The position numbers were made by a program, and so were the translations under genes. From Escherichia coli (GTDB lineage: Bacteria > Pseudomonadota > Gammaproteobacteria > Enterobacterales > Enterobacteriaceae), in NCBI RefSeq assembly GCF_044647545.1, contig NZ_CP172818.1: a stretch of 64,000 nt of DNA. One strand, 5' to 3'. Positions 1 to 62,518 of the stretch are shown here, one piece after another. Within the stretch, counting starts at the first letter, position 1. Every line of letters starts with the position of its first letter. Below the pieces are notes generated by a model. It was given only the letters and a program-made list of their open reading frames with translations, had not been told where the DNA came from and did no database searches.

Positions 1-1
1 C

Positions 2-208: not shown

Positions 209-211
209 TCC

Positions 212-841: not shown

Positions 842-842
842 G

Positions 843-1830: not shown

Positions 1831-2330
1831 TATGCAGCCCTCACGATATAATTAAATGAAATATTTCGTGGACGTGATTCGTTACCGAATTTATCTGAAC
1901 CATCAGTATTTCTCGCTGAATATGTTTGGAGGATTGTCCCTGATGATGGATTCGCATTATATTCATTTGTTCCTGCTGGATAGTATGACATTGCACTATT
2001 GTCATCTTTGAAAACAGCAGACATCAATCCATCACCACCACTTCCGTAAGCAGTTGTAAGAAATGACGGTGATCGAAAGAAAGACTATTTTGTGCCGAAA
2101 GTAAGGGAACGACCAGAATCTACCCCGCGCCCATCATCCCAGCCACGAATAAACTCACCACGTAAATCAGGCAATTTATTTGTCGGGTAAGCCTTCGCCA
2201 GTTTTGGATATTCAACGGCAGAAAAAGCCGCACCGTTGCATTTCAGCCAGCCAGTAGGCGGTGTGGCTGAAGGCCACGGAACAGGCACACCAACGGGTAA
2301 TGCCGAACCTTCTCCCAAACCAAGGTTTAT
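1830..2330 (-). pseudogene. stfE: Alternative tail-fiber variable segment StfE, interrupted by in-frame TAG at 2085-2087
   Basis: ORFs 2085..2390 and 1830..2027 are in the same frame, separated by a TAG; junction motif NLGLGEGSAL parallels StfP; an uninterrupted frame would give 166 aa. Confidence 0.6.
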
Positions 2331-2335
2331 GAAAA
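2310..2335 (+). other. pixR: Hin/Gin/Cin-type inversion crossover site just upstream of pin
   Basis: ttctcccAAACCaaGGTTTatgaaaa closely resembles hix/gix/cix consensus; reverse complement matches the 489-514 site core. Confidence 0.7.
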
Positions 2336-2392
2336 TGCGGAATAAGCGGCAAATGGCATCATTCCTGCTTTTGTCAGGGAGAGCTACCATGC

Positions 2393-2941
2393 TTATTGGC
2401 TATGTATGTGTGTCAACAAATGACCGAAACACAAATCTACAGCGTAATGCGCTGAACTGTGCAGGATGCGACTCATTTTTGAAGACAAGATAAGCGGTAC
2501 AAAGTCTGAAAGGCCGGGACTGAAAAAACTGCTCAGGACATTATCGGCAGGTGACACGCTGGTGGTCTGGAAACTGGACCGGCTGGGGCGTAGTATGCGG
2601 CATCTGGTCATTCTGGTTGAGGAGTTGCGCGAACGTGGCGTTAATTTTCGCAGCCTAACAGATGCTATTGATATCAGCACATTCGATGGGGCGTTTTTCT
2701 TTATGTGATGGGGGCCTTGGCTGAAATTGAGCGTGAACTGATTGTTGAACGAACAAAAGCTGGACTGGAAACTGCTCGTGCACAGGGACGAATTGGTGGA
2801 CGTCGTCCCAAACTTACACCAGAACAATGGGCACAAGCTGGACGATTAATTGCAGCAGGAACTCCTCGCCAGAAGGTGGCGATTATCTATGATGTTGGTG
2901 TGTCAACTTTGTATAAGAGGTTTCCTGCAGGGGATAAATAA
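2393..2941 (+). pseudogene. pin: Serine invertase Pin, disrupted by two frameshifts
   Basis: Three consecutive ORF pieces in three frames (MLIGYVCVSTNDR... stop at 2495-2497; ...RLIFEDKISGTKSERPGLKK... stop near 2706-2708; ...MGALAEIERELIVERTKAGL...GDK); together they cover a Gin/Hin-like invertase. Confidence 0.8.
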
Positions 2942-3047
2942 AGTTAAAGACACTTTGTGTACAAAAGAAAGTAAAACAACAGCAACTTGTTGCAATTTTA
3001 TCAATAAAAGTAGTATTGTCGTGAAAAATTGATTAAAGATTAATATT

Positions 3048-3881
3048 ATGCATGTTTTTGATAATAATGGAATTGAACTGAAAGCTGAGTGTTCGATAGG
3101 TGAAGAGGATGGTGTTTATGGTCTAATCCTTGAGTCGTGGGGGCCGGGTGACAGAAACAAAGATTACAATATCGCTCTTGATTATATCATTGAACGGTTG
3201 GTTGATTCTGGTGTATCCCAAGTCGTAGTATATCTGGCGTCATCATCAGTCAGAAAACATATGCATTCTTTGGATGAAAGAAAAATCCATCCTGGTGAAT
3301 ATTTTACTTTGATTGGTAATAGCCCCCGCGATATACGCTTGAAGATGTGTGGTTATCAGGCTTATTTTAGTCGTACGGGGAGAAAGGAAATTCCTTCCGG
3401 CAATAGAACGAAACGAATATTGATAAATGTTCCAGGTATTTATAGTGACAGTTTTTGGGCGTCTATAATACGTGGAGAACTATCAGAGCTTTCACAGCCT
3501 ACAGATGATGAATCGCTTCTGAATATGAGGGTTAGTAAATTAATTAAGAAAACGTTGAGTCAACCCGAGGGCTCCAGGAAACCAGTTGAGGTAGAAAGAC
3601 TACAAAAAGTTTATGTCCGAGACCCGATGGTAAAAGCTTGGATTTTACAGCAAAGTAAAGGTATATGTGAAAACTGTGGTAAAAATGCTCCGTTTTATTT
3701 AAATGATGGAAACCCATATTTGGAAGTACATCATGTAATTCCCCTGTCTTCAGGTGGTGCTGATACAACAGATAACTGTGTTGCCCTTTGTCCGAATTGC
3801 CATAGAGAATTGCACTATAGTAAAAATGCAAAAGAACTAATCGAGATGCTTTACGTTAATATAAACCGATTACAGAAATAA
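3048..3881 (+). CDS. mcrA: 5-methylcytosine-specific restriction endonuclease McrA (HNH)
   Basis: 277-aa ORF with C-terminal HNH motif (CENCG...HHVIPLSSGG...CPNCH). Confidence 0.9.
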   Translation: MHVFDNNGIELKAECSIGEEDGVYGLILESWGPGDRNKDYNIALDYIIERLVDSGVSQVVVYLASSSVRKHMHSLDERKIHPGEYFTLIGNSPRDIRLKMCGYQAYFSRTGRKEIPSGNRTKRILINVPGIYSDSFWASIIRGELSELSQPTDDESLLNMRVSKLIKKTLSQPEGSRKPVEVERLQKVYVRDPMVKAWILQQSKGICENCGKNAPFYLNDGNPYLEVHHVIPLSSGGADTTDNCVALCPNCHRELHYSKNAKELIEMLYVNINRLQK

Positions 3882-4125
3882 AATTATTTATTAAAGTCAC
3901 ATTTAAGACGTAATACCCTACAGGGTAAAAATTTTCTCTGATCTTAACTTCTGCAAATGTTAACTGCTATTTTTATGCTAAAAATGGTTATCAAAACTCA
4001 AAAACACATGTTTATAATCAATGAGTTATAGAAATGCTAAGGGCTAATGAGTTATATGCAAATTAGTAAAATTATGTTGCTATGTCAGATAGTTACGATT
4101 TAGTCATCTAACTAATGTACGCCAT

Positions 4126-32648: not shown

Positions 32649-33033
32649 CTTGTTGTAAGCCGGATCGGAGGCAGCGTCTTCTGGTTGCGAAAAAATCATC
32701 CATCCGGCTGGTCAGCAACTGTAGTTGGTGATGTGACAGAGCCATTTCCCATGATAGTGTCCATTACAATGATGGACACTATTTCCCCGGAACCTGAACT
32801 CACCGCACAGGCGTTCTACATAAAACGCTTACGTTTCATTGTTGACTCGAACTCGACTTCAGATAAATCACGCTTCACCCTTGATGGAGCCTGTACATAG
32901 ATTTGTGTAATTGCCTGATTTTGATATGTTCAATTCACCTTCAAATGAAGGTGAATTTATGGCCGACAAACAATTACAGGCTCTGGCTGCGGTCAGTAAA
33001 GCATCGCATCCGGCGATAGATGCTGCATTAAAT

Positions 33034-37681: not shown

Positions 37682-38082
37682 GATTTTCATAAGGCGGATA
37701 GTGATACAGATGCCGCTATCCGCTTTCACATCAGAACGTATACTCGATACCTGCTTTACGGGGTGAAAAAAATCAATATAGCACTTCGATATCCGATAAA
37801 GTCGGTTCCCGGTAACAACAACAGAATCCTTTTTTAATTATTGTTTCGTTGTTTTTGGTGTGATTCAGAAAATAAATATTTTAGACAGTAGCCAGTCAGG
37901 CGTTAAAAATGGGGCGGATAGTGAGGCGGTTTTGGCTGCGCTTATTGAACATTTTCAGAATTGATCAGAATCCTTCTGTAGATTCGTAGCCAAAATACCC
38001 GTTCGGCAATGCTTCAGTTACGCGAAGAGGAATGGGTCTGAATTCTTTTTTTGGTTGTCAACTTTGGTAGTGTCTGGATTAT

Positions 38083-38286
38083 GTGATTATTAATTTAACT
38101 CCAGAAAGCAAAAAACGTCGACGAAGTGAACACCAGACATTCAGGAAGCAATTGATGCTTTATATAGCCAACGTCTGGGGCGTAAAGTCGCTGGGTGATG
38201 AGGTGAGACACTTACCCGTAAATGACGCTAATTCGCAAAATCCACGCACTCCAAACATTTGCGCAATACTTCCCGCCAGGACTTGA
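38083..38286 (+). CDS. Hypothetical 67-aa ORF in the interval where K-12 carries ycgY (possible remnant)
   Basis: Only + strand ORF of at least 60 aa between ymgE and treA; GTG start; no recognisable domain. Confidence 0.2.
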   Translation: MIINLTPESKKRRRSEHQTFRKQLMLYIANVWGVKSLGDEVRHLPVNDANSQNPRTPNICAILPART

Positions 38287-38378
38287 AAAACCGTCGTGAG
38301 AAAAAACCATAGCTATGGTGTTATCCGCCGACAACGCCATCCGGAGAAGCCGAATGACGTTGTCGGAGTAAGCGCTGG

Positions 38379-40076
38379 TTAAGGCGTAGGTTCCGCCTCT
38401 TTTTGTTTTAGCGGTTGTGTTGTTGATTCACTGAGTGGACGCGTCGCCGGAACATTGTCACACGGTTGCTCTTTCGGGCAGATCAAATCCAGCATTTTCA
38501 GCGTCACGCCATTGGTCCAGCCAAAGCCATCCTGTAATGGATATTCGCCACCGCCGCCCCCCGTTCCGGTGGCGCTGACATCATATTTTTCCACCAGCTT
38601 TTTCTCCCGGTCATAGGTGTGCTGAACATTGGTCAGGAAGTGCCAGCTAATGTCCATCGCCACCTCTTTTTGCCCGTAGTTTTGTAATCCTTCTGTCGCG
38701 ACCCACTGCAACGGTGCCCAGCCGTTTGGCGCATCCCATTGTTGTCCACTTTTCACCGACGTGGTGTTCAGGCCGCCGGGTTGCAGCAGATGTGTTTTCG
38801 TCGCCGTCGCCATTTTGCTGGCGCGATCTTTCGCTGCCGCATTGACGTACAGCGGGAACAGGGCGGCCGCGGTTAACTGATTGCGCACTTTATGACTTTT
38901 CAGGTCGTAATCGGCATACCAGCCTTGTTGATCGTTCCACAGGTATTTTTCGATCCCTTTTTGACGGGCATTCGCCAGCGTTTCGTACTGGTTTGCCATC
39001 GCGTTATCTCCGGCAGCTTTGCTGGCGCGGGCGAGGATTTTTTCCATTTTAAACATCAGGCTGTTCAGATCGACCGGTACGATGCTGGTGGTGCGTAAGG
39101 TATTTAACTGCTGCGGATTGTCCATCCAGCGTGAGCTGAAATCCCAGCCAGACGCAGCGGCAGAGCGCAGGTCGCGGTAAATTTCAGTGGCAGGTCGATT
39201 CGGATTGCTTTTGGCGGTGGCAATATCTTCCACCCATGACTCTGGTCGTGGCGTATCGCGATCGTCCCAGTAGCGGTTGAGAAGGGTACCATCCTGAAGT
39301 TTGACAATGCGTTTTTCCTGTTGTCCGGCTTGCAGGTTTTCAACACCGTCCATCCAGTAAGCATATTCTTTTTGCATTTGCGGCAGGTATTGTTTCAACG
39401 CGGCGTCGCCTTCATGCTGCGTCAGTAACTCTACCATCAGGGCAAAGAAGGGCGGCTGCGAGCGGCTTAAATAGTAACTGCGGTTGCCGTTGGGAATATG
39501 CCCGTAAGTGTCTATTTCATGAGCAAAATTGGCCACCATATCCGCGACTTTATCCCAGTGACCGCTTTCGGCAAGTCCTAACATGGTGAAGTAACTGTCC
39601 CAGTAATATACCTCGCGAAAACGTCCGCCCGGCACGACATAAGGTTCCGGCAGCGGTAACAGAGAATCCCATTTTTCGGTGTTTTCGGTAGAACGCGTTA
39701 ATACCGGCCAAAGTCCGTCAATATGTTCGCGCAGTGACTGCCCCTCTGGCGGAACATATTTCTCGCCCTCTTTTGGCAGGGTGAAATTGACGTTAACGAA
39801 ATGGCGCAGATCAAATCCGCTCTGGTTTTGCTGCATCCGATAATCAGCAAGGATCATCAGCGGATCGCTGTTCGGCACGGCATCGGCAAAGGTTTTTTGG
39901 TCCGGAAAAAGTTTGGCGTTTTGCACATCATTAAACAGCGGCCCTAATAAAATATCAGGCGGCTGTGGCGTTACCGATGTTTCTTCTGCCTGCACCGATA
40001 GCGCAGCAAAACACAAAAAGATGCAGGCTGGAATTAACGCCATTTTTTGCGGGCGAGAAGGGGTGGGGGATTTCAT
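38379..40076 (-). CDS. treA: Periplasmic trehalase TreA
   Basis: 565 aa from ATG 40076, signal peptide. Confidence 0.95.
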
Positions 40077-40395
40077 CAATCATTCTCCTTTGGCGAAACC
40101 GAATAAAACGGTATTCAAGTATCAGAAAACCTTAGTTCAGGATCGCACTAGCTGCATGATCGAAATCACATTCTGCGAACTGACAGACATTTTAGAAAAG
40201 GGAATTAAAGGGATAAATAACGGCGAAATAGAGTGATAAAATAACATCTGTTTATTAGTCAGCCAGCGACGTTGGGTTCGCGATTAGCGAAGAAAAATCA
40301 TCATAATTTGGTGAAAAATATAACAGGTAGTTAAAAAACATCAGTGCAGAGTAAATTGCCGGATGACATCAGAATGATGCCATCCGAACGGTGGT

Positions 40396-41814
40396 TTAAC
40401 CCTGACGGTTGAAACGTTGCGTTTTAACGTCCAGCGTTAGCGTTTCTTCTGGTTGTATCGCATACAGTTTCTCACCCTGCTGGCAAATCCAGCCAATTCC
40501 CAGTTCACGGGCGATTAGGGCACTGTGGGATAGCGGACTTCCGGCGCTAAGGCAGATACCTTTTACAACCGCTGGATCCAGTTGCAGTACTGTGGAGGGA
40601 TAAATGTTCTCCGCCAGTAGAATAGTTGGCGAGTTAAACTGCGGGAGTTCTTCTTTCGTTTGGGTCAGGTGGACCAGGGTGCGATGCAGAAGATCGTCCA
40701 CATCGATATAGCGAGCCTGTAGATATTCATCATCCAGCTGTTGGTATTGCTGGCTAAGTTCTTTAAGAACGTGCTGCCAGGCATATTCCGCCGTGCAATG
40801 TTCATGCTGAAGGAGTTCGCTTGCCGCCGCCTGCAGTTCCGGATCATCTAACAGTGTATGGTGACCAGAAAAGATTGCGGCAATATCGTCAAGCCCGCTG
40901 GTTTCTGCTTTCGCTGTTAACGTCATCAGATCTAATAACGTGAAGTCAATGGCCTGGCGTAATCGTTCTTGTTCTTCTTCCACGGTCAGGATTGATTTTG
41001 CCTGTACCGTACATAAAACAGGTTGATAATAAAAGGCTTTACCCGAAACAGGCGGAACGGGACGCAGAGTAGGTGGAGCAACTTCCTCCGTTTCACCAAA
41101 GTTATCTTCAGCCAGCTGACGGAAAGCGATCAGTGCCTCTTCAGCTTCTGGTCCTTTCGCAATCAGGCGCAGCGTATCGTTATAGCGAACTTGTAGTAAC
41201 GCAATCTGATTAATACTCTCCGGTGTAACGCATTTGCCGTTTTTCTCCAGCAACATATCGGCATTAAATGTCGATAAGGTATAAACCAGTCGGGAGGCCG
41301 GACGTACATGCAGGCCGTTACGGTTTTTTATGACCACCGACAGAGAACGGGCTTCTTCATCGTACGGAGGACATGTGTCAGAGATTTCAGTGTCGGAGGA
41401 CGGTAAACCCAGTTGTTCACGTTTGGCTTCCAGCGCATGCATGGCGTCAAAGATGACTTTGTCGATATCCGCCCCCGAGGCCGCGCTGACCGTTGCTGCC
41501 AGTGTACCTTCGACCAACGGCGCAGCACACAAACGTACTTTTGCGGCGATCTCGGGAGCCAGCAATTCCAGCGCAGTTTCAGCACTCAATAATGCGCTTC
41601 CCATATCCATCATGACCAGCACATGGTCGGCATCGGCAACAGATTCGATGGCCTCCATCACTTTGACGGCATCGGTACCAATGGGATTTTGTGGATCGTC
41701 AATTCCCGCGGCAATGGCGATTTTACAATTATCACTCATTAACATCTGACGGGCTAATTCACCGACACCTTCTCCCAGTCGGCTGCTATGTGAAACTATG
41801 ACCAGGTTTACCAT
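40396..41814 (-). CDS. dhaM: Dihydroxyacetone kinase phosphotransfer subunit DhaM (EIIA-HPr-EI-like)
   Basis: 472 aa from ATG 41814. Confidence 0.9.
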   Translation of the reverse strand: MVNLVIVSHSSRLGEGVGELARQMLMSDNCKIAIAAGIDDPQNPIGTDAVKVMEAIESVADADHVLVMMDMGSALLSAETALELLAPEIAAKVRLCAAPLVEGTLAATVSAASGADIDKVIFDAMHALEAKREQLGLPSSDTEISDTCPPYDEEARSLSVVIKNRNGLHVRPASRLVYTLSTFNADMLLEKNGKCVTPESINQIALLQVRYNDTLRLIAKGPEAEEALIAFRQLAEDNFGETEEVAPPTLRPVPPVSGKAFYYQPVLCTVQAKSILTVEEEQERLRQAIDFTLLDLMTLTAKAETSGLDDIAAIFSGHHTLLDDPELQAAASELLQHEHCTAEYAWQHVLKELSQQYQQLDDEYLQARYIDVDDLLHRTLVHLTQTKEELPQFNSPTILLAENIYPSTVLQLDPAVVKGICLSAGSPLSHSALIARELGIGWICQQGEKLYAIQPEETLTLDVKTQRFNRQG

Positions 41815-41824
41815 CACCAATTCC

Positions 41825-42457
41825 TTACTCTTTTGCGGCTAACGCCAACATTTGCATCATAAACATCACCGAGGTCGCGCCGGGATCCTGGTGACCAATA
41901 CTGCGTTCACCGAGATAACTGGCGCGGCCTTTGCGGGCTTGCATCGTAATCGTACTTTGTGCAGCGGATTCGGCGATGCTACTGGCAGCGTCGAGCGCCG
42001 CCGGAACAGGGAGATTTTGCTCGCAGGACTGACGTAACGATTCCACCACCGGCACCCACACATCACACATGGTTTTATCGCCAGGTTCGGCTTTCCCGCG
42101 ACTGATTACGCCGTCCGCGCCATCGCGGAACATCTGATAAAGCTCTTCCAGCGTCAGGCTTTGCCGTGCCTGGGTTGTCTGTGCGGCGCGGATAAAGAAG
42201 GTACCGAACAGCGGACCACTGGCACCTCCGACGCTGGAAAGTAGCGTCATGCCGGTATTCTTGAGAATGAAACCGATATCTTTATCTGCGATAGCAGGGA
42301 GTTTTTCCACCACTTTGCTAAAGCCTCGATTCATATTTAGCCCGTGGTCAGCGTCGCCAATCTCGCGATCCAGTCCAGTAAGATACTCGCTCTCGGTGCT
42401 GAAAATATCGCCACAACGAGTGAGCCAGTTAACAATTTGAGTTCTGCTCAGTGACAT
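41825..42457 (-). CDS. dhaL: Dihydroxyacetone kinase ADP-binding subunit DhaL
   Basis: 210 aa from ATG 42457 (MSLSRTQIVNWLTRCGDIF...). Confidence 0.9.
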   Translation of the reverse strand: MSLSRTQIVNWLTRCGDIFSTESEYLTGLDREIGDADHGLNMNRGFSKVVEKLPAIADKDIGFILKNTGMTLLSSVGGASGPLFGTFFIRAAQTTQARQSLTLEELYQMFRDGADGVISRGKAEPGDKTMCDVWVPVVESLRQSCEQNLPVPAALDAASSIAESAAQSTITMQARKGRASYLGERSIGHQDPGATSVMFMMQMLALAAKE

Positions 42458-42467
42458 TGCTTTCTCC

Positions 42468-43538
42468 TTATTTACCCCAGTTAAGGGCCGGGGTGTGGAC
42501 AGGGGCGTCCCAGAGTGCCAGCGTTTCGTCATCAACTTTCAGTAAGCTGATTGAGAAACCGGTCATATCCAGTGAGGTGCAGTACGCGCCAATTAAATTA
42601 CGTTCGATAGTCAATCCCGCTTGCTGGCAACGTGTGGTCAGGCGGCTATAGACGCCGTACAGCTCAGAAAGCGGAGTTGCGCCAAGATTGTTAACCAGCG
42701 CAATCACCCGATCGCCAGACTGGAGCGGTTGTTTGGTTTGTGGTTCTTCCTGCCAGCTGCCTTGTTGATAATCCCAGAAACGCAAAGTGCGATGGTATGA
42801 GCCATTTTCCAGCAGGGTGTCGAACATTTCATCGACGGTTTGATCAAGGGAAGAGAAGGGGCGGCGGTCAATACCTGGCTCACCATGAATGCCGACGCCA
42901 AACTCCATCTCATTATCCGCCAGGGTAAAAGAAGGTTTGCCCGCGGCAGGAACGGTACAGGCACCGAGAGCGATACCTATTGAATGGCCTTGATTATTCA
43001 ACTTACGCCCCAGTTCCGCACAGGCGTCCAGTGAGTCGCCACGCTCCGCCGCTGCACCTACGAGTTTTTCAATTAATACGGTGTTGGCAACGCCGCGCCG
43101 CCCGGCGGTATAAAGACTGTCTTTTACTGCAACGTCGTCATCAATGACCACAGTGGTCACTTTTACGCCGCTATCGTGCAGTAACTCGGTTGCTGTTTCG
43201 AAGTTAAGAATATCGCCGGTGTAATTTTTGATAATCAACAGTACACCTTCGCCGCCATCAATTTGCATGGCGCATTCAAAGATTTTATCGGGCGTCGGTG
43301 AGGTGAAAATTTCGCCCGGACAGGCCCCAGAAAGCATCCCCTGACCGATATAACCACAATGCATCGGCTCGTGTCCGCTGCCGCCACCCGACAGCAGGGC
43401 GACTTTTCCTGCCACGGGGGCATCAGCTCGGGTGACATACACCGGATCCTGGTGCAGTATCAGCGATGGATGCGCTTTCGCTAGTCCTGCCAGTTGTTCG
43501 TCCAGTACGTCTTGCACATCATTGATCAATTTTTTCAT
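42468..43538 (-). CDS. dhaK: Dihydroxyacetone kinase subunit DhaK
   Basis: 356 aa from ATG 43538 (MKKLINDVQDVLDEQLAGL...). Confidence 0.9.
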   Translation of the reverse strand: MKKLINDVQDVLDEQLAGLAKAHPSLILHQDPVYVTRADAPVAGKVALLSGGGSGHEPMHCGYIGQGMLSGACPGEIFTSPTPDKIFECAMQIDGGEGVLLIIKNYTGDILNFETATELLHDSGVKVTTVVIDDDVAVKDSLYTAGRRGVANTVLIEKLVGAAAERGDSLDACAELGRKLNNQGHSIGIALGACTVPAAGKPSFTLADNEMEFGVGIHGEPGIDRRPFSSLDQTVDEMFDTLLENGSYHRTLRFWDYQQGSWQEEPQTKQPLQSGDRVIALVNNLGATPLSELYGVYSRLTTRCQQAGLTIERNLIGAYCTSLDMTGFSISLLKVDDETLALWDAPVHTPALNWGK

Positions 43539-43653
43539 TATTTTGCTCCAGCAATTACGGTAGGGCATGGATGATGTTCAACGACACGGCGACCACTGAC
43601 TGCCGATGAATCCATTGTGCATCAGGCAAGGGAAAAGAAAATTAGCCCAAATT

Positions 43654-43701
43654 ATGTTTCATAGTGAAACATATTCTTTAATGAATGTTCCATATTGAAA
43701 C
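43654..43701. promoter_or_regulatory. Tandem palindromic motifs in dhaK-dhaR divergent region (candidate DhaR sites)
   Basis: atGTTTCatagtGAAACat and atGTTCCatattGAAACtt about 10 bp apart. Confidence 0.4.
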
Positions 43702-43765
43702 TTTTACGTGTATTAATACTTAAAATTGCGAGCCGGAACACCTTTTGTCATAAGGGATGCGGGAT

Positions 43766-45685
43766 ATGAGTGGCGCTTTTAACAACGATGGTCGGGACAT
43801 ATCTCCCTTAATTGCAACCTCCTGGGAGAGATGCAATAAGCTGATGAAACGGGAGACATGGAACGTACCACACCAGGCCCAGGGCGTGACATTTGCTTCT
43901 ATTTATCGGCGTAAGAAAGCGATGCTGACGCTCGGGCAGGCTGCGCTGGAAGATGCCTGGGAATATATGGCACCGCGAGCGTGTGCGTTGCTTATCCTCG
44001 ATGAAACCGCCTGCATTCTCAGCCGTAATGGCGATCCGCAAACCTTGCAGCAACTAAGTACACTGGGATTCAATGACGGCACGTATTGCGCCGAGGGAAT
44101 TATTGGTACTTGTGCGCTATCGTTAGCGGCTATCTCTGGTCAGGCCGTGAAAACGATGGCCGATCAACATTTCAAACAGGCACTCTGGAACTGGGCCTTT
44201 TGCGCAACGCCGTTGTTTGACAGCAAGGGCCGATTGACGGGAACAATAGCGCTGGCGTGTCCGGTTGAACAAACTACCGCAGCTGATTTGCCGTTGACGT
44301 TGGCAATCGCACGCGAGGTCGGAAATTTACTGCTGACGGACAGTTTGCTCGCTGAAACTAACCGCCATTTAAATCAACTTAATGCCCTGTTAGAAAGTAT
44401 GGATGATGGCGTGATTAGCTGGGACGAGCAGGGTAATTTGCAATTTATCAACGCCCAGGCGGCGCGAGTCTTGCGCCTTGACGCGACGGCAAGTCAGGGA
44501 CGAGCAATCACTGAACTCTTAACGTTACCCGCCGTATTGCAACAAGCAATAAAACAGGCACATCCGCTCAAACACGTAGAAGCAACCTTTGAAAGTCAGC
44601 ACCAGTTTATTGATGCGGTGATAACCCTTAAACCGATAATAGAAACGCAGGGAACCAGCTTTATTTTGTTGCTCCATCCTGTGGAACAGATGCGGCAGTT
44701 AATGACCAGTCAATTAGGAAGAGTCAACCATACTTTCGCTCATATGCCACAGGACGATCCGCAAACCCGCCGCTTGATTCATTTTGGTCGCCAGGCGGCG
44801 CGCAGTAGCTTTCCTGTCCTGCTTTGTGGAGAAGAGGGCGTGGGCAAGGCACTGCTAAGTCAGGCAATTCATAATGAAAGTGAGCGTGCAGCGGGGCCTT
44901 ATATCGCCGTCAATTGTGAGTTATATGGTGATGCGGCGCTGGCGGAAGAATTTATTGGCGGCGATCGCACGGACAATGAAAATGGTCGTCTGAGTCGACT
45001 GGAACTGGCGCACGGCGGCACGCTGTTTCTTGAAAAGATTGAATATCTGGCGGTGGAGTTACAGTCTGCTTTGCTTCAGGTTATCAAGCAGGGTGTTATC
45101 ACGCGACTGGATGCGCGGCGTTTAATACCCATTGATGTCAAAGTGATTGCCACAACGACCGCGGACCTGGCAATGCTGGTGGAACAAAATCGCTTTAGTC
45201 GCCAGCTGTATTACGCGCTGCATGCATTTGAAATTACCATCCCGCCTCTGCGTATGCGGCGTGGCAGCATTCCGGCGCTGGTGAATAACAAATTACGCAG
45301 CCTTGAAAAACGCATCTCTACGCGGCTGAAAATTGATGACGATGCCCTCGCTCGCCTGGTTTCTTGTGCATGGCCAGGCAACGATTTTGAACTTTACAGC
45401 GTCATCGAGAATCTTGCACTGAGTAGTGATAACGGGCGCATTCGCGTCAGTGATTTACCTGAACATCTGTTTACCGAGCAGGCGACAGATGATGTCAGCG
45501 CCACTCGCCTTTCCACCAGTCTGTCATTTGCGGAAGTTGAAAAAGAGGCAATTATTAACGCAGCCCAGGTCACAGGCGGTCGCATTCAGGAAATGTCGGC
45601 TTTACTTGGAATCGGCCGCACTACGCTGTGGCGGAAAATGAAGCAACATGGCATTGATGCAGGGCAGTTTAAGCGCCGGGTATGA
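43766..45685 (+). CDS. dhaR: Transcriptional activator DhaR (GAF/PAS + AAA+ + Fis-type HTH)
   Basis: 639 aa from ATG 43766 (MSGAFNNDGR...). Confidence 0.9.
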   Translation: MSGAFNNDGRDISPLIATSWERCNKLMKRETWNVPHQAQGVTFASIYRRKKAMLTLGQAALEDAWEYMAPRACALLILDETACILSRNGDPQTLQQLSTLGFNDGTYCAEGIIGTCALSLAAISGQAVKTMADQHFKQALWNWAFCATPLFDSKGRLTGTIALACPVEQTTAADLPLTLAIAREVGNLLLTDSLLAETNRHLNQLNALLESMDDGVISWDEQGNLQFINAQAARVLRLDATASQGRAITELLTLPAVLQQAIKQAHPLKHVEATFESQHQFIDAVITLKPIIETQGTSFILLLHPVEQMRQLMTSQLGRVNHTFAHMPQDDPQTRRLIHFGRQAARSSFPVLLCGEEGVGKALLSQAIHNESERAAGPYIAVNCELYGDAALAEEFIGGDRTDNENGRLSRLELAHGGTLFLEKIEYLAVELQSALLQVIKQGVITRLDARRLIPIDVKVIATTTADLAMLVEQNRFSRQLYYALHAFEITIPPLRMRRGSIPALVNNKLRSLEKRISTRLKIDDDALARLVSCAWPGNDFELYSVIENLALSSDNGRIRVSDLPEHLFTEQATDDVSATRLSTSLSFAEVEKEAIINAAQVTGGRIQEMSALLGIGRTTLWRKMKQHGIDAGQFKRRV

Positions 45686-45784
45686 AAGACAGAAACGATT
45701 TCTGATACATCAGAGTGATCTGTATTTCATTCCGGCGCACGCTAACAATTTTCAGCATCGTTTAAGGGCTTGTCTATCCCGCAC

Positions 45785-48639
45785 TTAAAAGCTGAAGCGA
45801 TATCCTCCGTTGACTTGCTTCTGATCAAAGAGGTTACCCTGCGTGTAATCCGCTTCGAGATAGAATGTGTGCTGTTTGTTATACTGTGCACTGACTCCCA
45901 CGCCGTTATTCCAGCCATTACCTTTGAAACTGTACTTCTCCCGGGAGTTGTTCAACAGATATTCGGTATCCCCTGAAAACTCGCGGATAGCGCCAGTCTT
46001 CACATAGACATTCAGCTGGCTGTTGCCTGCGGTGATGTCATACCCCAGTATCATGCTGGCACGCCCCAGCAGCGATTCGTAGTGATTCAGATGTATATTG
46101 AGGCCATTACTCGCCTTCATAGTCATCTCATTCTGGTGGCTGTATGTAAGCTGGGTTTGCGGCTGAATATAGAACCCATAACCAGTAGGGGACAGGTTGA
46201 ACCTCTGCCCGGCTTCCAGGGAGATGCTCATTCCATTCGCAGTGCCGTTGGCGTTAACGCCGTTGTTCTGACTGTCCAGTACGTGGGGAAATGATTTTGG
46301 CGCGATGCTTTTATAACGAGATCGCTGTAAAACTGTTTTGTGCCATGTAACTGGCGTACATTCCCATGTAGTCTACGTGTGTTACGCTCCCGCTATAGTC
46401 CGGCGATGCATGTGTTGAGCCAATATACAGACCGACATACAACGGCATTACATCAGAGAGACGTTTATCCCCACCAAACTGGATACCGCTGTAACCCATG
46501 TCAAAGCCGCTCAGTTTGCCACTGGCAAAGGAGTCTGAGGCTTCCCCCATAACTGCGCAACCAGATATTACCGTCTTTACTCTGATTTCGCAGGTCACCC
46601 ATCCGTTGCATCAGCGTACGGTTTTCAACATAGTTCAATAAGTAACCGACATTGAGATAATTGCCGCCAGCATCTGCGGTCGTGGTGGGTTTAGGCGTGG
46701 GAGCGGGTTCAGGCGTAGGATCGGGGTTGACTATGGAGGCTGAGCGGGAAATGGTGTGGTTCAGGATTAGGAGTCGGTTCCGGAACTGTCCCGGAAGCGT
46801 AAAGCTCCCAGTTAGTGCCATTTTTACGCACATCAGACATATCCCCCAACTCAACCTGAGAAGACGCGCTGAACGAGGCCGCGCCGTCAGTGGTTATTAC
46901 CACGGTCAGAACTTCATTTCCCGTCGTGGCCTCGCTGCCCTGGTTCAGCATAGCTATATGTGATTACCAGCACTACTCCCGCTGATATTCAATAAATCCC
47001 CTTTATTATTAACGCCATTACCCTCGCCAACAACATCAGCACGCATAATAAAGGTACTGTTACCGCTCAGGTTCTCTACGTTTAATGTGGCAAATGTGCC
47101 GGCAGTTGACCCGTGGCTGGCAAAATCGACAGTTGAATGGCTCAGCGCCAGCGTGTCGAGATTAGAATTACTTGTTACGTTCCAGACGCTGTTATTCATT
47201 GCAACGTCCAGTTTTCCGCCATTGACATTATCGCTGAGGGAGGAACCTGTCCAAACCGACCCAGGGTGCATATCCAGATTGATTAGCCCACCTTTGGAAA
47301 GAACGCTACCGTTGATAAGCATACGACCCGAGGCGTTGATGCGGCTGGCGGCATAACCATCGTCATGTTGCGTTGCGATGGCCATCTGGTCGGGTGTACT
47401 CATATCAATGACCAGATCGCTCGTGAGGTCGATCTGGCTGTTGGTCATGGCATAAATTCCCCTGGCTCCTGCCGCGCCGGTGATAGCCAAACTGTCTCCG
47501 GTTATTCTACCGCCGCTGAGAGCCCACAAACCCAGCGCCAGACTGCCATTACGATCAACTGTAATATCGGTATTTTGCATGTTGACAACAGCCGTTGCCG
47601 TCTGGGCCGAGGCACCATAAGAACCGCCGGAAAAGATGCTGTTTCGTTGCGCTGCCGTGCCAGTAAAATTGATTATCGCGTCTGAACCACTGGTGACGAG
47701 GCCACCGCCCTGCGCGGAAGAAATATGGCTATCTGCACCGATAGTGGTTGTACCACCACGAACTTCGACGCCATTGGCCGCGGCTCCAGTTACATCAACA
47801 GTGAGTGCATTCGCGCTAACCTGGCCAAAGCTCCAGAGGCCGTGAGCATTATCGCCATTGGTTTTAATGGTACTGTTTGTTCCGAGATCGACAACAGAGT
47901 TTTTCTGTACGTTTATCCCCATGGCGCTGTAGCCCTGAACATCGATTGTCAGGTCTGTAGCCGTAAAACGCGCAGCACCATTGGCGTTATTGCCGTTGAG
48001 ACCACCGATATAAACACCTGTACTTCCATCGGTCGTGATTTTACTTCCGCTTCCAAGATCGACACTGGTGCCATAGTCATTGATGGTTAGGCCTATACCG
48101 TTCGAGTTTTCAATGGTGAATTGAGTGGCTGTTAGTGTTGAGCTATGCCCAATAATGATGCCGTCATCGTTACTCTTAATGGTGCTGCCTGTGCCTAAGT
48201 CAGCATGGGTATAGTCACCAATTAAGTTAATGCCGATGGCAGAGGTTTGACCAACAACATCTACTGTGAGTCGGTTAGCTGTCAGGGAGCTGTTTTTGCC
48301 CTGAATAATGATTCCTTTTGCATATCCAGAGGCGTCGTTGACATTGACGGTGACATCATTACCCAGGTTGATATTGCCAGGCGTGTTTCCTGCTGGGGTC
48401 ATTACACCATAGAGGTTTCCTGATGGATCGGCGGTATCTCCTGTAATTCTGTCACCATCATTAATAGTAATATTGGTGCCATATTGACTTCCTGTATCAG
48501 CAGCTATCAGCAGGGGGGAAAAGATAATTGCATTCAAACCAATAGCGCCAAATTTTATCAGTTGAATTGAGGGCGAACGGATTTTTAATTCAGCGAGACG
48601 ATCTGCTTTGGTATTCCCATTGTGTTGTTTGATGCCCAT
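45785..48639 (-). pseudogene. ycgV: Autotransporter adhesin YcgV with multiple frameshifts in the C-terminal third
   Basis: Five ORF fragments (46954..48639 passenger; 46709..46951; 46501..46854; 46311..46598; 45785..46231 beta-barrel ending YRFSF) jointly span an autotransporter of roughly 950 codons. Confidence 0.75.
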
Positions 48640-48980
48640 ACCACTCCTATATAGTACCCAGACTATGGGTCTATGGATTTTGTCATTTTGTTTAAATCAA
48701 TGAATAATATCCTCTTATCATCATGATATTTGTATGGTGCAATCATGATGAGCTTCTCAGAGAATAATTCTCTATTACCGGGCAAAATCAGGAACACAGG
48801 AATTAATATATATTTAACATCCCCCTTACAAAGGTGAGTTTATATCGAGTTATTCCCTAAGTTGTCGTTACTTATTCCAATTCGTTACTATAAATATGGC
48901 AAAAATATTACAACAAACAGCGGTTAAAAAATTTGGTGAAGATTTTTTGTAATAATCCTAATTAGTTATGGGAATTTCGC

Positions 48981-49163
48981 TTGATGTATCTGCATAACAA
49001 AAACAATATGCGCCATTTTTGCATTACTAATAAGAAAAAGCAAAAAACATCGATATTCATTTTTGGTCAATGGGTTTTCTGGCCTATCGTTGTTATTGTG
49101 CTACTGGTTATCATTTTCATCTTGCCAGCATATTGGAGCGTGATCAATTTTGATCAGCTGTGA
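48981..49163 (+). CDS. Hypothetical small membrane protein (60 aa, one predicted TM helix)
   Basis: ORF MMYLHNKNNMRHFCITNKKKQKTSIFIFGQWVFWPIVVIVLLVIIFILPAYWSVINFDQL in AT-rich ycgV-ychF spacer; weak SD. Confidence 0.2.
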   Translation: MMYLHNKNNMRHFCITNKKKQKTSIFIFGQWVFWPIVVIVLLVIIFILPAYWSVINFDQL

Positions 49164-49409
49164 AGGGGGCTGATGTGTAGTGATACAAAAACTTACGTTA
49201 TATCACTGCTAATGAGATATCCGGCATCTGAACACTTATGTCTTTAATTATTCTCGTGGTTCACTATAGGCAATAAGCACAAAAGTGTAGGATGTTACAA
49301 GAATGAATTAGGACTCTATGAAATGAAAAATCCACGCAATTGCGTGGATTTAATGGTTTTTTTGATTCTCATGAAGTTCAATGAAACCTCATGAGACAAC
49401 AAATTTTAT

Positions 49410-50501
49410 TTAGACGTTGAACAGGAAGTTCATTACATCGCCATCTTTAACGATGTAATCTTTGCCTTCTGCACGCATTTTGCCTGCTTCTTTCGCGCCT
49501 TGTTCACCTTTGTAAGTGATGAAATCTTCAAACGAGATGGTTTGTGCACGGATAAAGCCTTTTTCAAAATCAGTATGGATTTTGCCAGCGGCCTGCGGCG
49601 CGGTTGCACCAACCGGAATGGTCCATGCACGTACTTCTTTCACCCCAGCGGTGAAGTAAGTTTGCAGGTTCAGCAGCTTATAACCGGCACGGATCACACG
49701 GTTCAGGCCCGGCTCTTCCAGCCCAAGCTCCTGCATAAACTCGTCACGTTCTTCGTCGTCCAGTTCGGCAATGTCTGCTTCAACAGCAGCACAAACCGGA
49801 ACCACAACAGAACCTTCTTTCGCCGCGATTTCACGCACCTGGTCAAGATACGGGTTGTTTTCAAAACCGTCTTCGTTGACGTTGGCGATGTACATTGTTG
49901 GTTTCAGCGTCAGGAAGCTCAGGTAACGAATAGCCGCTTTCTCTTCAGCGCTTAAATCCAGCGCGCGCAGCATACCTGCGTTTTCCAGCTGGGGCAGGCA
50001 TTTTTCCAGGACCGCCAGCTCAGCTTTCGCGTCTTTATCGCCACCTTTGGCTTTCTTCTGTACGCGATGAATCGCACGTTCACAGGTGTCGAGATCCGCC
50101 AGCGCCAGTTCGGTGTTGATAACTTCAATATCATCCGCCGGGTTAACTTTGCCGGAAACGTGAATGATGTTGTCATTTTCAAAGCAGCGAACAACGTGAC
50201 CGATCGCTTCGGTTTCACGGATGTTGGTCAGGAACTGGTTACCCAGACCTTCGCCTTTCGATGCGCCTTTTACCAGACCGGCGATATCGACAAATTCCAT
50301 GGTCGTGGGAAGCGTACGCTGCGGTTTTACGATTTCAGCCAGTTGATCCAGGCGAGGGTCAGGCATTGGTACGACGCCTGTGTTCGGCTCAATGGTACAG
50401 AATGGAAAGTTGGCCGCTTCAATACCGGCTTTGGTCAGCGCGTTGAACAGGGTAGATTTCCCGACGTTGGGCAAACCGACGATACCGCATTTGAATCCCA
50501 T
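49410..50501 (-). CDS. ychF: Ribosome-binding ATPase YchF
   Basis: 363-aa ORF with G1 motif GLPNVGKST. Confidence 0.95.
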
Positions 50502-50617
50502 GATTTAAATCACCTTAATATCTTAATAATCAACCTGTTATTGCTAACAGATTGCAGAAATGGAAATAACTTTGCCTATTATACACGGCACTCGGCAAAA
50601 ATGCCGCAGACAACGAC

Positions 50618-51202
50618 TTATTGCGCTTTAAAGGCGTGCAATCGGTTCGTTGCTTTGGTCAAGCCATCTGTAAACCACATTTCAGTACAACGTGCCGCTT
50701 CGTCGATGGCTTCATCAATTAACTTCTGTTCACTAACAGGCGGTTTGCCTAACACAAAACCGACAACTTTATTTTTATCGCCTGGATGACCAATTCCGAT
50801 GCGTAAACGGTGAAAGTTAGGGTTATTACCCAATTTACTGATGATGTCTTTCAGTCCATTGTGACCACCATGGCCACCGCCCAACTTAAATTTGGCGACG
50901 CCAGGAGGCAGATCCAGTTCGTCGTGGGCCACCAGAATTTCGTCCGGATTAATACGGAAAAAACTGGCCATCGCCGCAACGGCTTTGCCGCTGAGATTCA
51001 TAAATGTAGTCGGGACTAACAGGCGGACATCTTCGCCTCCAAGGGTGACTCGCGAAGTATAACCAAAGAATTTAGCCTCTTCGCGCAGCGGAGCGCGCAA
51101 TCGCTCTGCCAGTAAGTCAACGAACCAGGCACCAGCATTATGTCGCGTTGCGGCGTATTCAGCGCCGGGGTTCGCCAGGCCGACAATCAATTTAATCGTC
51201 AC
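50618..51202 (-). CDS. pth: Peptidyl-tRNA hydrolase
   Basis: 194-aa ORF. Confidence 0.95.
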
Positions 51203-51479
51203 GTTTTTTTGTCCTGAGTGTGTACATAACTGGCGCGTAGTTTACTGGTTGCGGCCCCGCTTGACAAAAAACTGCGTATCAAATGCAGATAACGCAATAA
51301 TTGCCTGAGTGGACTATTAGAAAGCCAAGGTGTTCAGGCGTTTATTTGTAAAGTTTTGTTGAAATAAGGGTTGTAATTGTGATCACGCCCGCACATAACC
51401 CACAGGGTGTTGTCTATACTTTACACATAAGGAAGAGGGGTATTCCCTGTTACAACCCAGAAAGTTCCGGAGGTGACAT

Positions 51480-51758
51480 ATGAAACGCAAAAACGCTTCG
51501 TTACTCGGTAACGTGCTCATGGGGTTGGGTCTGGTGGTAATGGTGGTCGGTGTGGGGTATTCAATCCTCAACCAGTTACCACAGTTTAATATGCCCCAGT
51601 ATTTCGCACATGGTGCAGTGCTAAGTATTTTCGTCGGTGCCATTCTCTGGCTGGCGGGTGCCCGTGTTGGCGGGCATGAACAGGTGTGCGACCGTTACTG
51701 GTGGGTTCGCCACTATGACAAACGTTGCCGCCGTAGCGATAATCGCCGTCATAGCTAA
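51480..51758 (+). CDS. ychH: Stress-induced membrane protein YchH
   Basis: 92-aa ORF. Confidence 0.85.
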   Translation: MKRKNASLLGNVLMGLGLVVMVVGVGYSILNQLPQFNMPQYFAHGAVLSIFVGAILWLAGARVGGHEQVCDRYWWVRHYDKRCRRSDNRRHS

Positions 51759-51812
51759 CAAATACTGCAGTTTACTGACCAGTCAGTTTGCTCTGACTGG
51801 TCAATCTCGTAC

Positions 51813-53492
51813 TTATAAATCCGCCATCGCCGCGCGACGATTCGGGAAGAAAGCAAGGCGGCCCGGGATCGGTTGAATGCCTGCGCGAGCCATCGTGCGC
51901 AGTGGCTGGAATTCCACGTTGCACACGCGCAGTTCACATCCTTCGGGTAGACGCTTCACAAAACGCTGGAACGCATCAAGACCACCAGCATCAAGTACCG
52001 GAACGGCATCCCACTTCAGAATCACAATCCGTTTGCCTTCAAGACGTGACTCCAGGTCTGTGAATAAGCCTTCAGCAGCAGCAAAAAACAGCGGGCCAAT
52101 AACGCGCAGTACCAGGACATCGTCTGGAACATCTACGACTACCGGTGCCAGGCGAGTCATACGTGCGATACGACGCATAAACAGCAGCGATGCCAGCACG
52201 ATCCCCACGCTGATGGCAATAACCATATCAAACAGCACGGTCAGCGACATGCACAACAGCATGACAATGATGTCATCTTTCGGTGCATGACGCAGCAAGT
52301 CGACCACTTTGTGCGCTTCACTCATGTTCCACGCCACCATCAACAGCAGGGCTGCCATGGCGGAAAGCGGCAGCCAGGAGAGCAGCGGTGCCAGTACCAG
52401 CAGGGCAAGAATAACCAGAATAGAGTGGATCACCGCCGAGATAGGGGAAGTTGCCCCGGCACGGACGTTAGCGGCAGAACGCGCGATGGCAGCTGTAGCG
52501 GTAATGCCACCAAAGAACGGAGCGATAATATTCCCCAGTCCCTGTCCAACCAGTTCGCTGTTCGCTTTGTGTTTCGTTCCGGTCATACCATCCAGTACCA
52601 CGGCGCAGAGCAGAGATTCGATTGCGCCGAGCATTGCCATTGAGAATGCCGCAGGCAGCAGTGTGCGAATAGAATCCCAGGTTAGCGTGAATTCTGAATC
52701 AGGCAGATCCCACGGCAGCACAAGTTGCGGCAGCAGTTGCGGAATACCGTTACCCTGAGAACCATCGGCCAGGACGTAGTGGAATTGCGAACCGATGGTA
52801 GCAACATGTCCGCCGAGCAGATTAACAATCCCCATCACCGCGCAACCAGCCAGCAAGGCCGGAAGATGACCGGGTAAACGAATGCCCAGACGCGGCCAGA
52901 AAACCAGAATACCAAGCGTCACAATGCCAATGGCTGCATCACCCACATTAATGGTCGGCAGCGCCATAAATAATGCGCCGACTTTTTGTAGATAATGTTC
53001 CGGGACATGGGCCATTTGCAGACCGAGAAAATCTTTAATCTGCATGGTACCGATGGTGATCCCGATACCCGAGGTGAAACCTAAGGTGACGGAAACCGGA
53101 ATATACTCAATCAGGCGCCCAAAGCGTGCCAGCCCCATCAGAATCAAAAAGATCCCCGACAGCAAGGTCGCAACCAGCAGTCCTGCCAGTCCAAACTGTT
53201 GCGAAACGGGATAGAGAATTACCACAAATGCCGCAGTCGGACCGGAAACGCTAAAGCGTGACCCCCCCGTCAGAGCAATGACAATCCCCGCAACAGCTGC
53301 GGTATATAAACCGTACTGGGGTGCCACACCACTACCAATAGCCAACGCCATCGCCAGCGGGATAGCAATAATCCCGACGGTTATCCCGGCAATCAGGTCA
53401 CGGGTAAACCGTGCGGCAGTATATTTTTCTTTCCAGCAAGCGTCGATCAGAGCGCGGAAAGGCATCACATGTGAGGAAAATATTTTGTTCAC
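51813..53492 (-). CDS. dauA: C4-dicarboxylate transporter DauA (SulP family, STAS domain)
   Basis: 559-aa multi-TM ORF. Confidence 0.9.
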
Positions 53493-53573
53493 AATAATGT
53501 TTCATCCGTGAGCGCATCATCTGTCAACTAAATGGCAGGTGAAGGAGGCATAGGTCATACAAATGGATATTAC

Positions 53574-53600
53574 AGACAAAAAAACCCGCCGCAGCGGGTC
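53574..53600 (-). terminator. prs terminator
   Basis: Minus strand cccgctgcggcggg hairpin followed by ttttttt. Confidence 0.65.
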
Positions 53601-53616
53601 TTTGAGCCGGGTTCGA

Positions 53617-54690
<1,074 letters not shown>

Positions 54691-54714
54691 TCACCGAAAC
54701 TCAGCTTGCCCGGC

Positions 54715-55565
54715 TTAAAGCATGGCTCTGTGCAATGGGGAAAGATTAACGCCTTTCGCCACAAAGCCATTGAGCCATTCCGGGGCTTGCTCTAGCACCT
54801 GGCGGGCTTCAGACTCTGTATCAAATTCAGCAAAGACACAGGCCCCTGTCCCAGTCAGGCGCGACGGGGCGTATTCTAACAGCCAGGAAAGCACCGCATC
54901 AACCTCGCGAAAACGTTTTCTTGCGATAACCTCGCAATCATTGCTGAATTCACATTTTAGCAACGTTTCTATTGACCTTTTTGGCGTATTGCGCGGGAGT
55001 TCAGGATCTTTAAAAATCACCGGTGTCGGAATACTTACACCAGGGTGCGCCACCAGATACCACTTCTCTGGCGGATCCACCGGCGTTAGTATTTCACCAA
55101 CGCCTTCGGCAAACGCGGCATGCCCCCGAACAAAGACAGGAACATCTGCGCCCAGCGTCAGTCCCATTTCCGCCAGCTCATCCATGCTTAGCCCGCATTG
55201 CCAGAGATGATTTAATGCCACCAGGACCGTCGCGGCATTGGATGAACCACCGCCGAGACCGCCGCCCATCGGCAAACGCTTGTCAATGCTGATATTCGCA
55301 CCGCTTCCCGTCGGAAGGCGCCCGCTGTCTGCCGCAGTTTTCATCAATAACCGCGCTGCGCGAACGATCAGGTTATCTTCATGTTCCACGCCTTCAACGG
55401 GCGTTAACAGACGAATATCCCCATCGTCACGAAGCTCAATGTTGATGGTGTCGCCGTAATCAAGAAACTGAAACAGCGTTTGCAGCGTGTGGTAACCATC
55501 CGCACGCTGACCGGTAATGTATAAAAACAGATTAAGTTTTGCCGGAGAGGGCCACTGTGTCCGCA

Positions 55566-55566
<1 letters not shown>
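54715..55566 (-). CDS. ispE: 4-diphosphocytidyl-2-C-methyl-D-erythritol kinase IspE
   Basis: 283-aa ORF. Confidence 0.95.
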
Positions 55567-56258
<692 letters not shown>

Positions 56259-62232: not shown

Positions 62233-62518
62233 TTATTTCTTTTTACCCTTCCTTTCCCCCCCCTTTTTCCCACCTTTATGCCCTAAACAAATACTCATAC
62301 CCTTCAATCAAATTACCCTTATTTCCTCTCATCGGGTTCTCTCACAACAATCAGGATAAAGCCCCCCATTCCCTCCGGATACCCGGCTGGATATCGTCTC
62401 AATTCATCTCACTCATCCCAAATGTTCAAAATCATCCTCAACCCAGTCGTTTCATGAGTGCTCTGGATGATGCTTCCAGCTCGGGTTGCCAATATTTACT
62501 TGCAGAAGAGATAAAGAC
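62233..62518. repeat. Degenerate partial ldr/rdl repeat unit without a toxin ORF
   Basis: Aligns loosely to the leader/rdl part of the flanking units (ggataaagccccc...tctcaattcatct...); C/T-rich low-complexity tract at 62240-62290. Confidence 0.6.

Follow-up and report, generated by a model that had tools for sequence, protein, structure and literature searches.

YcgV and its Counterpart in the Window

Self-translocation of a type Va autotransporter depends on a passenger and a β-barrel that are encoded in one continuous reading frame. Among the known members of this type is YcgV of Escherichia coli K-12, an AIDA-I/SAAT-like protein of "Group 4" that has been placed with the self-associating biofilm adhesins (PMC9289746) and serves as a marker in adhesin typing (PMC11184843). 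The K-12 reference gene (b1202, WP_001334788.1) spans 2868 bp, and according to Pfam its product comprises a Pertactin domain (residues 494–615), a Pro/Thr linker (approximately 619–654), and an Autotransporter beta-domain that forms the barrel (PF03797; 694–935, E = 1.6e-37). Natural ycgV pseudogenes have a place in the comparison as well. Those of S1-CAM-01-C, 19213, and loci L006–L011 are disrupted in the C-terminal third of the gene, as is the copy described here.

The stretch of DNA analyzed in this study (hereafter, the window) comprises 64,000 nucleotides of E. coli contig NZ_CP172818.1. Its ycgV homolog (Table 1) is situated between dhaR and ychF, the position orthologous to the K-12 locus, and gene positions 1–1680 and 2489–2868 as well as both intergenic flanks are 100% identical to K-12 at the nucleotide level. 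The Pertactin and Autotransporter beta-domains are still recognizable in the fragments, albeit divided: PF03797 is split between the 148-aa ORF (E = 2e-19) and the 95-aa ORF, where it falls short of the gathering score (E = 5e-5), and the Pertactin-type or autochaperone domain PF03212 is present but cut in two (residues 494–560 of the 561-aa ORF and 3–51 of the 80-aa ORF). Unlike its K-12 counterpart, the gene consists of five ORFs in three frames with a net loss of 13 bp, and no single product can hold both passenger and barrel. The locus thus has the domains and the synteny of a type Va YcgV orthologue and lacks the single ORF. This layout agrees with the initial annotation, which had described the first approximately 560 codons as one ORF (561 codons), the remaining third as four more fragments in three frames (80, 117, 95, and 148 codons; confirmed by the ORF layout and by tblastn, which recovered the YcgV protein in three frames), and the extreme C-terminal barrel with its terminal YRFSF as open again.

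Lesions within ycgV

The alignment to K-12 ycgV that had been suggested in the initial annotation, carried out here as a global alignment, enumerated 32 substitutions and 8 indels. In gene coordinates, single bases are deleted at 1684, 1885, 1909, 2319, and 2362, three bases at 1799, and six at 2261, and one base is inserted at 2109. All differences are confined to gene positions 1681–2488, and the rest of the gene is 100% identical to K-12. A lesion cluster had been placed at 46230–46960 before; the cluster itself was correctly recognized, but the affected zone is slightly wider (Table 1). The 561-aa ORF ends after codon 561 because the first deletion itself creates a TAG stop, and patches 6 and 7 leave the C-terminal ORF out of frame with the N-terminal one.

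In total, approximately 40 events are gathered in about nine patches. All of them lie within 795 bp, and the rest of the 3,614-bp block shows no difference from K-12. For nine patches placed independently, such confinement has a probability of approximately 0.22^9, roughly 1e-6, and the clustering is thus far beyond chance. Several of the indels coincide with homopolymers or other short runs, namely TT, two CCC runs, and T5, or are located beside an A5 run, and one adjoins a G6 run. Judged by eye, some patches also destroy restriction sites (EcoRV, KpnI), in an inconsistent pattern.

Table 1. Positions of ycgV, its ORFs and lesions, and of other segments of the window that depart from the surrounding backbone.
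Feature	Position	Strand	Remarks
e14 prophage end	1–4114		K-12-only arrangement; 2729–4114, including mcrA, exact K-12
pinE 5' half	2338–2728		Overwritten with paralog-like, codon-spaced substitutions and frameshifts
ycgH block	12373–13958		0 differences from K-12; ECONIH1 allele very divergent
ycgY block	37755–38377		K-12-type; ECONIH1 has a 6.7-kb iron-uptake cluster instead
K-12-type ycgV block	45679–49292		dhaR–ychF interval; K-12-identical outside the lesion zone; no counterpart in the nearest relatives
ycgV-homologous region	45785–48639	minus	Type Va autotransporter adhesin; 2855 bp versus 2868 bp in K-12
ORF, 561 aa (N-terminal)	46954–48639	minus	Signal region, passenger, first half of Pertactin domain; same ATG as K-12 YcgV
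ORF, 80 aa	46709–46951	minus	
ORF, 117 aa	46501–46854	minus	
ORF, 95 aa	46311–46598	minus	
ORF, 148 aa (C-terminal)	45785–46231	minus	Second half of β-barrel, ends GGYRFSF; frame differs from the N-terminal ORF
Lesion zone	46165–46959		Covers YcgV residues ~561–830: second half of Pertactin, linker, first half of barrel
Patch 1	46946–46959	minus	5 substitutions, −1 deletion; makes TAG stop after codon 561
Patch 2	46835–46843	minus	−3 deletion, 3 substitutions; adjoins G6 run
Patch 3	46735–46759	minus	Two −1 deletions in CCC runs, GC>TT
Patch 4	46536–46537	minus	+1 insertion, 1 substitution
Patch 5	46375–46390	minus	−6 deletion, about 9 substitutions
Patches 6–7	46287–46334	minus	−1 deletion in T5 run, −1 at A5 run, 7 substitutions
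Patch 8	46165–46166	minus	AG>TC at two adjacent bases; Glu replaced by Gln in 148-aa ORF
Degenerate ldr repeat copy	62236–62443		208 bp, G-poor (15 G), rich in C and T

A K-12 Locus in a Foreign Backbone

Over its whole length the window is 97.7% identical to K-12, and between positions 47000 and 49000 there is not a single difference. Two kinds of sequence contribute to this average. Six backbone blocks, amounting to approximately 52 kb, are 99.96–100% identical to ECONIH1, an ST648-type genome, and diverge from K-12 by approximately 23 substitutions per kb (2.3%); the stretches flanking the ycgV block (39000–45678 and 49400–56000) match ECONIH1, and several other genomes too, at 100% identity. 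The K-12 blocks, by comparison, contain 5,982 bp in which not one base departs from K-12, although the divergence of the backbone would predict approximately 138 differences, and they coincide with sequence that is absent or unalignable in ECONIH1. The transitions between the two are abrupt: at the seven junctions, the last backbone-type SNP is found 3, 23, 14, 7, 8, 68, and 15 bp from the block edge, and K-12-type SNPs reach into the homologous flank at none of them (0/7).

In ECONIH1, the interval between dhaR and ychF is occupied by a 40.4-kb island that encodes two integrases and lacks ycgV, and in four other genomes with 100%-identical flanks the two genes are separated by a gap of approximately 40–43 kb. 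The ECONIH1 allele of ycgH shares 61% nucleotide identity with the window over 13616–13958 and 30–50% amino acid identity across the unalignable remainder. The e14 arrangement with mcrA is present in only approximately 165–170 genomes, which among the matches listed are all K-12-type laboratory strains; those strains and the window are collinear in this part, and icd is intact in ECONIH1. Conversely, the ECONIH1 insertions of 40.4, 6.7, and 1.9 kb are all missing from the window, which, judging from this composition, is a chimera. The passenger had initially been called intact, and its sequence indeed matches K-12 completely up to gene position 1680. As a sign of a live gene, however, this observation has no value, because the dhaR–ychF interval consists of K-12 sequence in a backbone whose closest relatives lack ycgV at this site.

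Damage outside ycgV

Similar lesions were detected in ycgY, whose block matches K-12 exactly except for a zone at 37955–38326. Closely packed patches there contain 20 substitutions and 21 indel events, and these are as private as those of ycgV: among 5,426 genomes, no match to the zone exceeded 92.4%. The only alignment obtained for the 208-bp piece close to the end of the window is to the 535-bp ldr repeat unit, of which it represents a copy riddled with deletions; the piece is absent from both K-12 and ECONIH1. As ycgY is just as scrambled, and privately so, and as this junk ldr copy is present in addition, the fault belongs to the assembly and not to ycgV. The substitutions in the 5' half of pinE follow a pattern that would be expected if the homologous invertase of another prophage had been laid over the template.

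The mutation spectra differ accordingly between the segments. The transition:transversion ratio (Ts:Tv) is 2.1 in the backbone with 0.03 indels per substitution, and the pinE zone has values of 1.9 and 0.11, respectively. The corresponding figures are 0.64 and 0.65 in the ycgV zone and 1.2 and 1.05 in the ycgY zone.

Search for Shared Variants and Donors

Positions 46100–47000 were compared to 5,426 complete E. coli genomes. The best match was 95.8% identical, the best-matching sequences were K-12-type alleles, and none of the genomes contained the changes. Among approximately 15 billion proteins, exact copies of the 561-, 148-, and 80-aa products were each found a single time, and the same NCBI contig encodes all three. 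When six further full-length ycgV alleles (90–99.9% identical) were aligned, the base of the window recurred in just 3 of the 47 variant columns; likewise, any sharer among 33 metagenome alleles was found for only 3 of these 47 columns, which is about the level expected by chance with polymorphism in 94 of 900 columns. A variant 21-mer from patch 5 was absent (0 matches) both from 100,044 species genomes and from the JGI metagenomes, where the wild-type 27-mer at the same site, used as control, retrieved 38 matches, and a 21-mer spanning patch 1 was also absent from the 100,044 species genomes. A natural divergent allele or a mosaic of such alleles was rejected as a source, since the variants fall on columns that are otherwise invariant in the six full-length and 33 metagenome alleles.

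The 901-bp ycgV segment has no paralog in the remainder of the window, and neither 68 kb of K-12 nor 108 kb of ECONIH1 contains one; even sensitive BLAST revealed no similarity to this segment in 1,480 genomes that lack ycgV. Eight patch-centered segments yielded no donor either and matched only ycgV or ycgY themselves (80–90% identity). Gene conversion or cross-mapping from a paralog was therefore rejected for donors with at least approximately 28 bp of identity, shorter or very divergent donors being beyond the reach of this search. Mutagenesis by a diversity-generating retroelement (DGR-type) was discarded as well, as the substitutions are not adenine-specific and indels are present.

Four variants recur singly in other K-12-type alleles, namely 1745A>T and 1885delC in S1-CAM-01-C, 2319delT in 19213, and 2355G>A in WP2-S18-ESBL-08. 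These three genomes had been chosen for their high rank in BLAST, and homopolymers make up two of the four shared sites; the agreement is probably a product of selection bias and of recurrent homopolymer changes, and some of the changes may be real. Descent from the frameshifted alleles of S1-CAM-01-C or 19213 was rejected even though the window shares two of the three differences that S1-CAM-01-C has in ycgV. Variants specific to S1-CAM-01-C are missing from the window at two sites in the ycgV block and at one in ycgH, where the window equals K-12, and S1-CAM-01-C does not possess e14. Two homopolymer deletions of these natural pseudogenes, 1885delC (S1-CAM-01-C) and 2319delT (19213), recur in the window copy. 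The pseudogenes of S1-CAM-01-C, 19213, and L006–L010, however, each have one disrupting lesion in an ordinary allele and a coherent genomic background, and L011 has five single-base deletions, whereas the window displays 40 changes in nine patches on a template that is foreign to its backbone.

Origin of the Frameshift Cluster

We consider it likely that the source record derives from an ECONIH1-related (ST648-like) strain whose assembly was templated on K-12 and is chimeric, and that the ycgV cluster is an assembly artefact. Wherever data of the strain aligned to a K-12 template, the template would have been replaced by the strain's own sequence, resulting in near-100% identity to ECONIH1; where the strain offered nothing alignable, at the e14 end, ycgH, ycgY, and ycgV, the K-12 template would have been left in place, and the strain's own insertions (the approximately 40-kb insertion, the 6.7-kb iron-uptake cluster, and the 1.9-kb insert) would have been dropped. 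A single K-12 template overwritten in this manner would account for the mosaic, its edges, and the missing insertions together. In the unsupported template, consensus calling or polishing on few spurious or poor reads might then have written the tight patches of substitutions and small indels; polishing on spurious alignments and low-depth consensus are both candidates for this step. What the sequence shows directly is a mosaic with its junctions, together with changes that are private, unusual in spectrum, and accompanied by similar damage at other sites of the window; from these we infer a templating pipeline and a noise-writing step. A pure reference fill would not by itself explain why the noise is located 200–500 bp inside the blocks with their edges spared, or why most of the fill is untouched. 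Furthermore, complex, indel-rich intergenic parts of the backbone are perfectly reproduced, which favors an overlay of contigs or long reads over a simple short-read consensus, and the pipeline is accordingly uncertain.

Reference-guided or patched assemblies resemble the window in several respects: they contain sample sequence where it is alignable and exact reference where it is not, they lose the insertions of the sample, their breakpoints lie at the edges of homology, and they stay collinear through a prophage that only the reference possesses. The patchy noise within an untouched template, on the other hand, is not the standard output of any tool that we could name. Each sequence-level property looked for as a mark of a templated artefact was found, and this points to such an origin: exact reference sequence is confined to unalignable intervals with switches at the homology edges (all four blocks), insertions specific to the sample are missing at the same sites, and unsupported intervals contain independent, unpolished noise (the scrambled ycgY and the ldr copy). 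None of the properties looked for in a pseudogene of the lineage was found. Instead of sharing the ancestry of its surroundings, the locus is 100% K-12-type outside the lesion zone between flanks that are 100% ECONIH1-type; instead of being dispersed and of background spectrum, the lesions occupy about nine patches in 795 bp with a Ts:Tv of 0.64 versus 2.1; and instead of being common to other isolates, the variant k-mers had 0 metagenome matches versus 38 for the wild type.

If the sequence were real, a natural F-type strain might have acquired K-12-type ycgV, ycgY, ycgH, and e14 by recombination, with ycgV and ycgY being genuine, decaying pseudogenes. The gene is dispensable in nature, being absent from approximately 27% of complete genomes, and several assemblies contain single ycgV frameshifts or nonsense mutations, two of which match indels of the window. 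Nevertheless, this scenario appears very unlikely to us, as it requires four imports that each end 3–68 bp from an edge of non-homology without one substitution in 5,982 bp, followed by decay that is confined to 795 bp in nine tight multi-base patches with the unusual Ts:Tv and indel proportion of this zone, and as the changes are found in no other genome or metagenome searched and ycgV is present at the locus in none of the examined relatives with identical flanks. The "advanced, localized decay" that the initial annotation had offered as one of two explanations thus finds no support in lesions that are private, patchy, and of odd spectrum, or in relatives without ycgV at the locus. Its other explanation, "local sequence-quality problems," is borne out by the K-12 template block in a foreign backbone, the private changes, and the parallel damage in ycgY and ldr. 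A variant in which an F-type strain imported K-12-type ycgV and then experienced a local burst, either a mutation shower or an error-prone repair tract, across the 800-bp linker and barrel, with a similar burst in ycgY, would be extremely improbable. Less credible still is a biological templated or targeted process acting on linker and barrel, be it gene conversion from a paralogous autotransporter, template switching, a mutation shower, or a diversity-generating mechanism, and we would assign it hardly any weight. Gene conversion and template switching do yield clustered multi-base changes, and the in-frame −3 and −6 deletions and the compensating −1/−1/−1 and +1/−1 sets restore the frame locally; but there is no donor in the window, K-12, 108 kb of ECONIH1, or any of the 5,426 genomes, the two largest patches are unmatched in 100,044 species genomes (patch 5 in metagenomes as well), the changed bases lack the adenine specificity of a DGR-like mechanism, and the same pattern recurs in the unrelated gene ycgY.

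Real K-12 DNA in the sample is a possible yet rather improbable origin of the K-12 blocks. Such DNA, introduced by a laboratory contaminant, by a conjugation recipient such as J53 or C600, or through a mixed culture or a metagenome, would have been assembled into the chromosome of the dominant strain at very low coverage, and the lesions would represent read errors; the cluster would be an artefact in this case too, though one of co-assembly. Errors that are rich in indels and linked to homopolymers do resemble noisy reads of low depth, as does the junk ldr copy, and with e14 and mcrA the window possesses sequences that are exclusive to K-12. Yet 5,982 bp of error-free K-12 blocks are hard to reconcile with a coverage that produced 5% error in adjacent zones, the islands of the dominant strain are missing at all three sites despite the higher coverage expected for them, and the block edges fall exactly on the homology boundaries. 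Templating would consequently account better than co-assembly of contaminant K-12 DNA both for the 5,982 bp without errors and for the absence of the islands. We retain the K-12-templated assembly as the preferred explanation. The frameshift cluster is almost certainly assembly noise and no record of past mutations, and ycgV is most likely missing from the dhaR–ychF locus of the real organism.

Implications for ycgV and the Strain

The ycgV frameshift cluster is very likely not a real biological feature and appears to require no new mechanism beyond an ordinary assembly artefact. Its biological weight is small, and it says nothing about the loss of an adhesin in this lineage. The consequences concern the use of the record, which would wrongly credit the strain with a K-12-type ycgV pseudogene, e14 with mcrA, ycgY, and a K-12 ycgH, and at the same time would hide a real insertion of approximately 40 kb (the integrase island in ECONIH1) and an iron-uptake cluster. 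Counts of pseudogenes, calls of gene presence and absence in the pan-genome, and scans for recombination would all be distorted by its use.

Segments resembling K-12 in the window

Outside ycgV, further segments were compared with K-12 and with ECONIH1, an ST648-type genome that is a near relative of the window's backbone.

Locations of the segments and of the ECONIH1 island
Feature	Location	Genes
e14 prophage end	window 1-4114	tail-fibre genes, pinE, mcrA, icd'
ycgH passenger	window 12373-13958	
Short K-12-type interval	window 32887-32972	
ycgY	window 37955-38326	
ldr-like piece	window 62236-62443	
40.4-kb island between dhaR and ychF	ECONIH1 NZ_CP009859.1 1426000-1466250 (L005)	

The gene arrangement of the e14 prophage end is K-12-only. 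Positions 2729-4114 are exact K-12 sequence, the 5' half of pinE (2338-2728) carries codon-spaced, paralog-like substitutions and a frame broken by five indels, and positions 1-2300, in which the P-invertible segment is oriented as in some K-12 records, share 92.8% identity with K-12. The ycgH passenger is identical to the ycgH pseudogene of K-12. Its counterpart in the nearest relatives is an allele of equal length that is very divergent (30-50% amino acid identity) and belongs to the ECIAI39_1904 family of autotransporters. The short K-12-type interval differs from K-12 at five positions, and at this site ECONIH1 contains a 1.9-kb insertion. A portion of the interval matches ECONIH1 sequence in inverted orientation.

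Private patch scrambling of the same kind as in ycgV was observed in ycgY, where 20 substitutions and 21 indel events lie on an exact K-12 background and the top match among 5,426 genomes reaches only 92.4%. In ECONIH1, ycgY is replaced by a 6.7-kb TonB-receptor/ABC iron-uptake cluster. The 208-bp ldr-like piece is C/T-rich and G-poor (15 G) and is absent from both K-12 and ECONIH1. It can be aligned solely as a copy, with extensive deletions, of the 535-bp repeat unit of ldr (type I toxin), which has three copies in K-12 and two in ECONIH1. It looks like unpolished read noise.

The ycgV locus in other genomes

Independent disruptions of ycgV, natural or assembly-level, occur in other E. coli assemblies (loci L006-L011, L019 and L022). 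Nonsense or frameshift lesions were found at nt 2312-2383, S1-CAM-01-C carries 1885delC and 19213 carries 2319delT, and a 148-aa C-terminal YcgV fragment is present on about 102 contigs. The gene is missing or partial in approximately 27% of complete genomes. In ECONIH1 the island stands in place of ycgV, at the position of window junctions 45678 and 49293, and four further genomes have a similar dhaR-ychF gap of approximately 40-43 kb. The island encodes two tyrosine recombinases, an AAA ATPase, RadC, and DEAD/DEAH helicase and HTH proteins of very large size, and it contains IS3 and IS1182 elements. It could represent a defence island or a mobile one.
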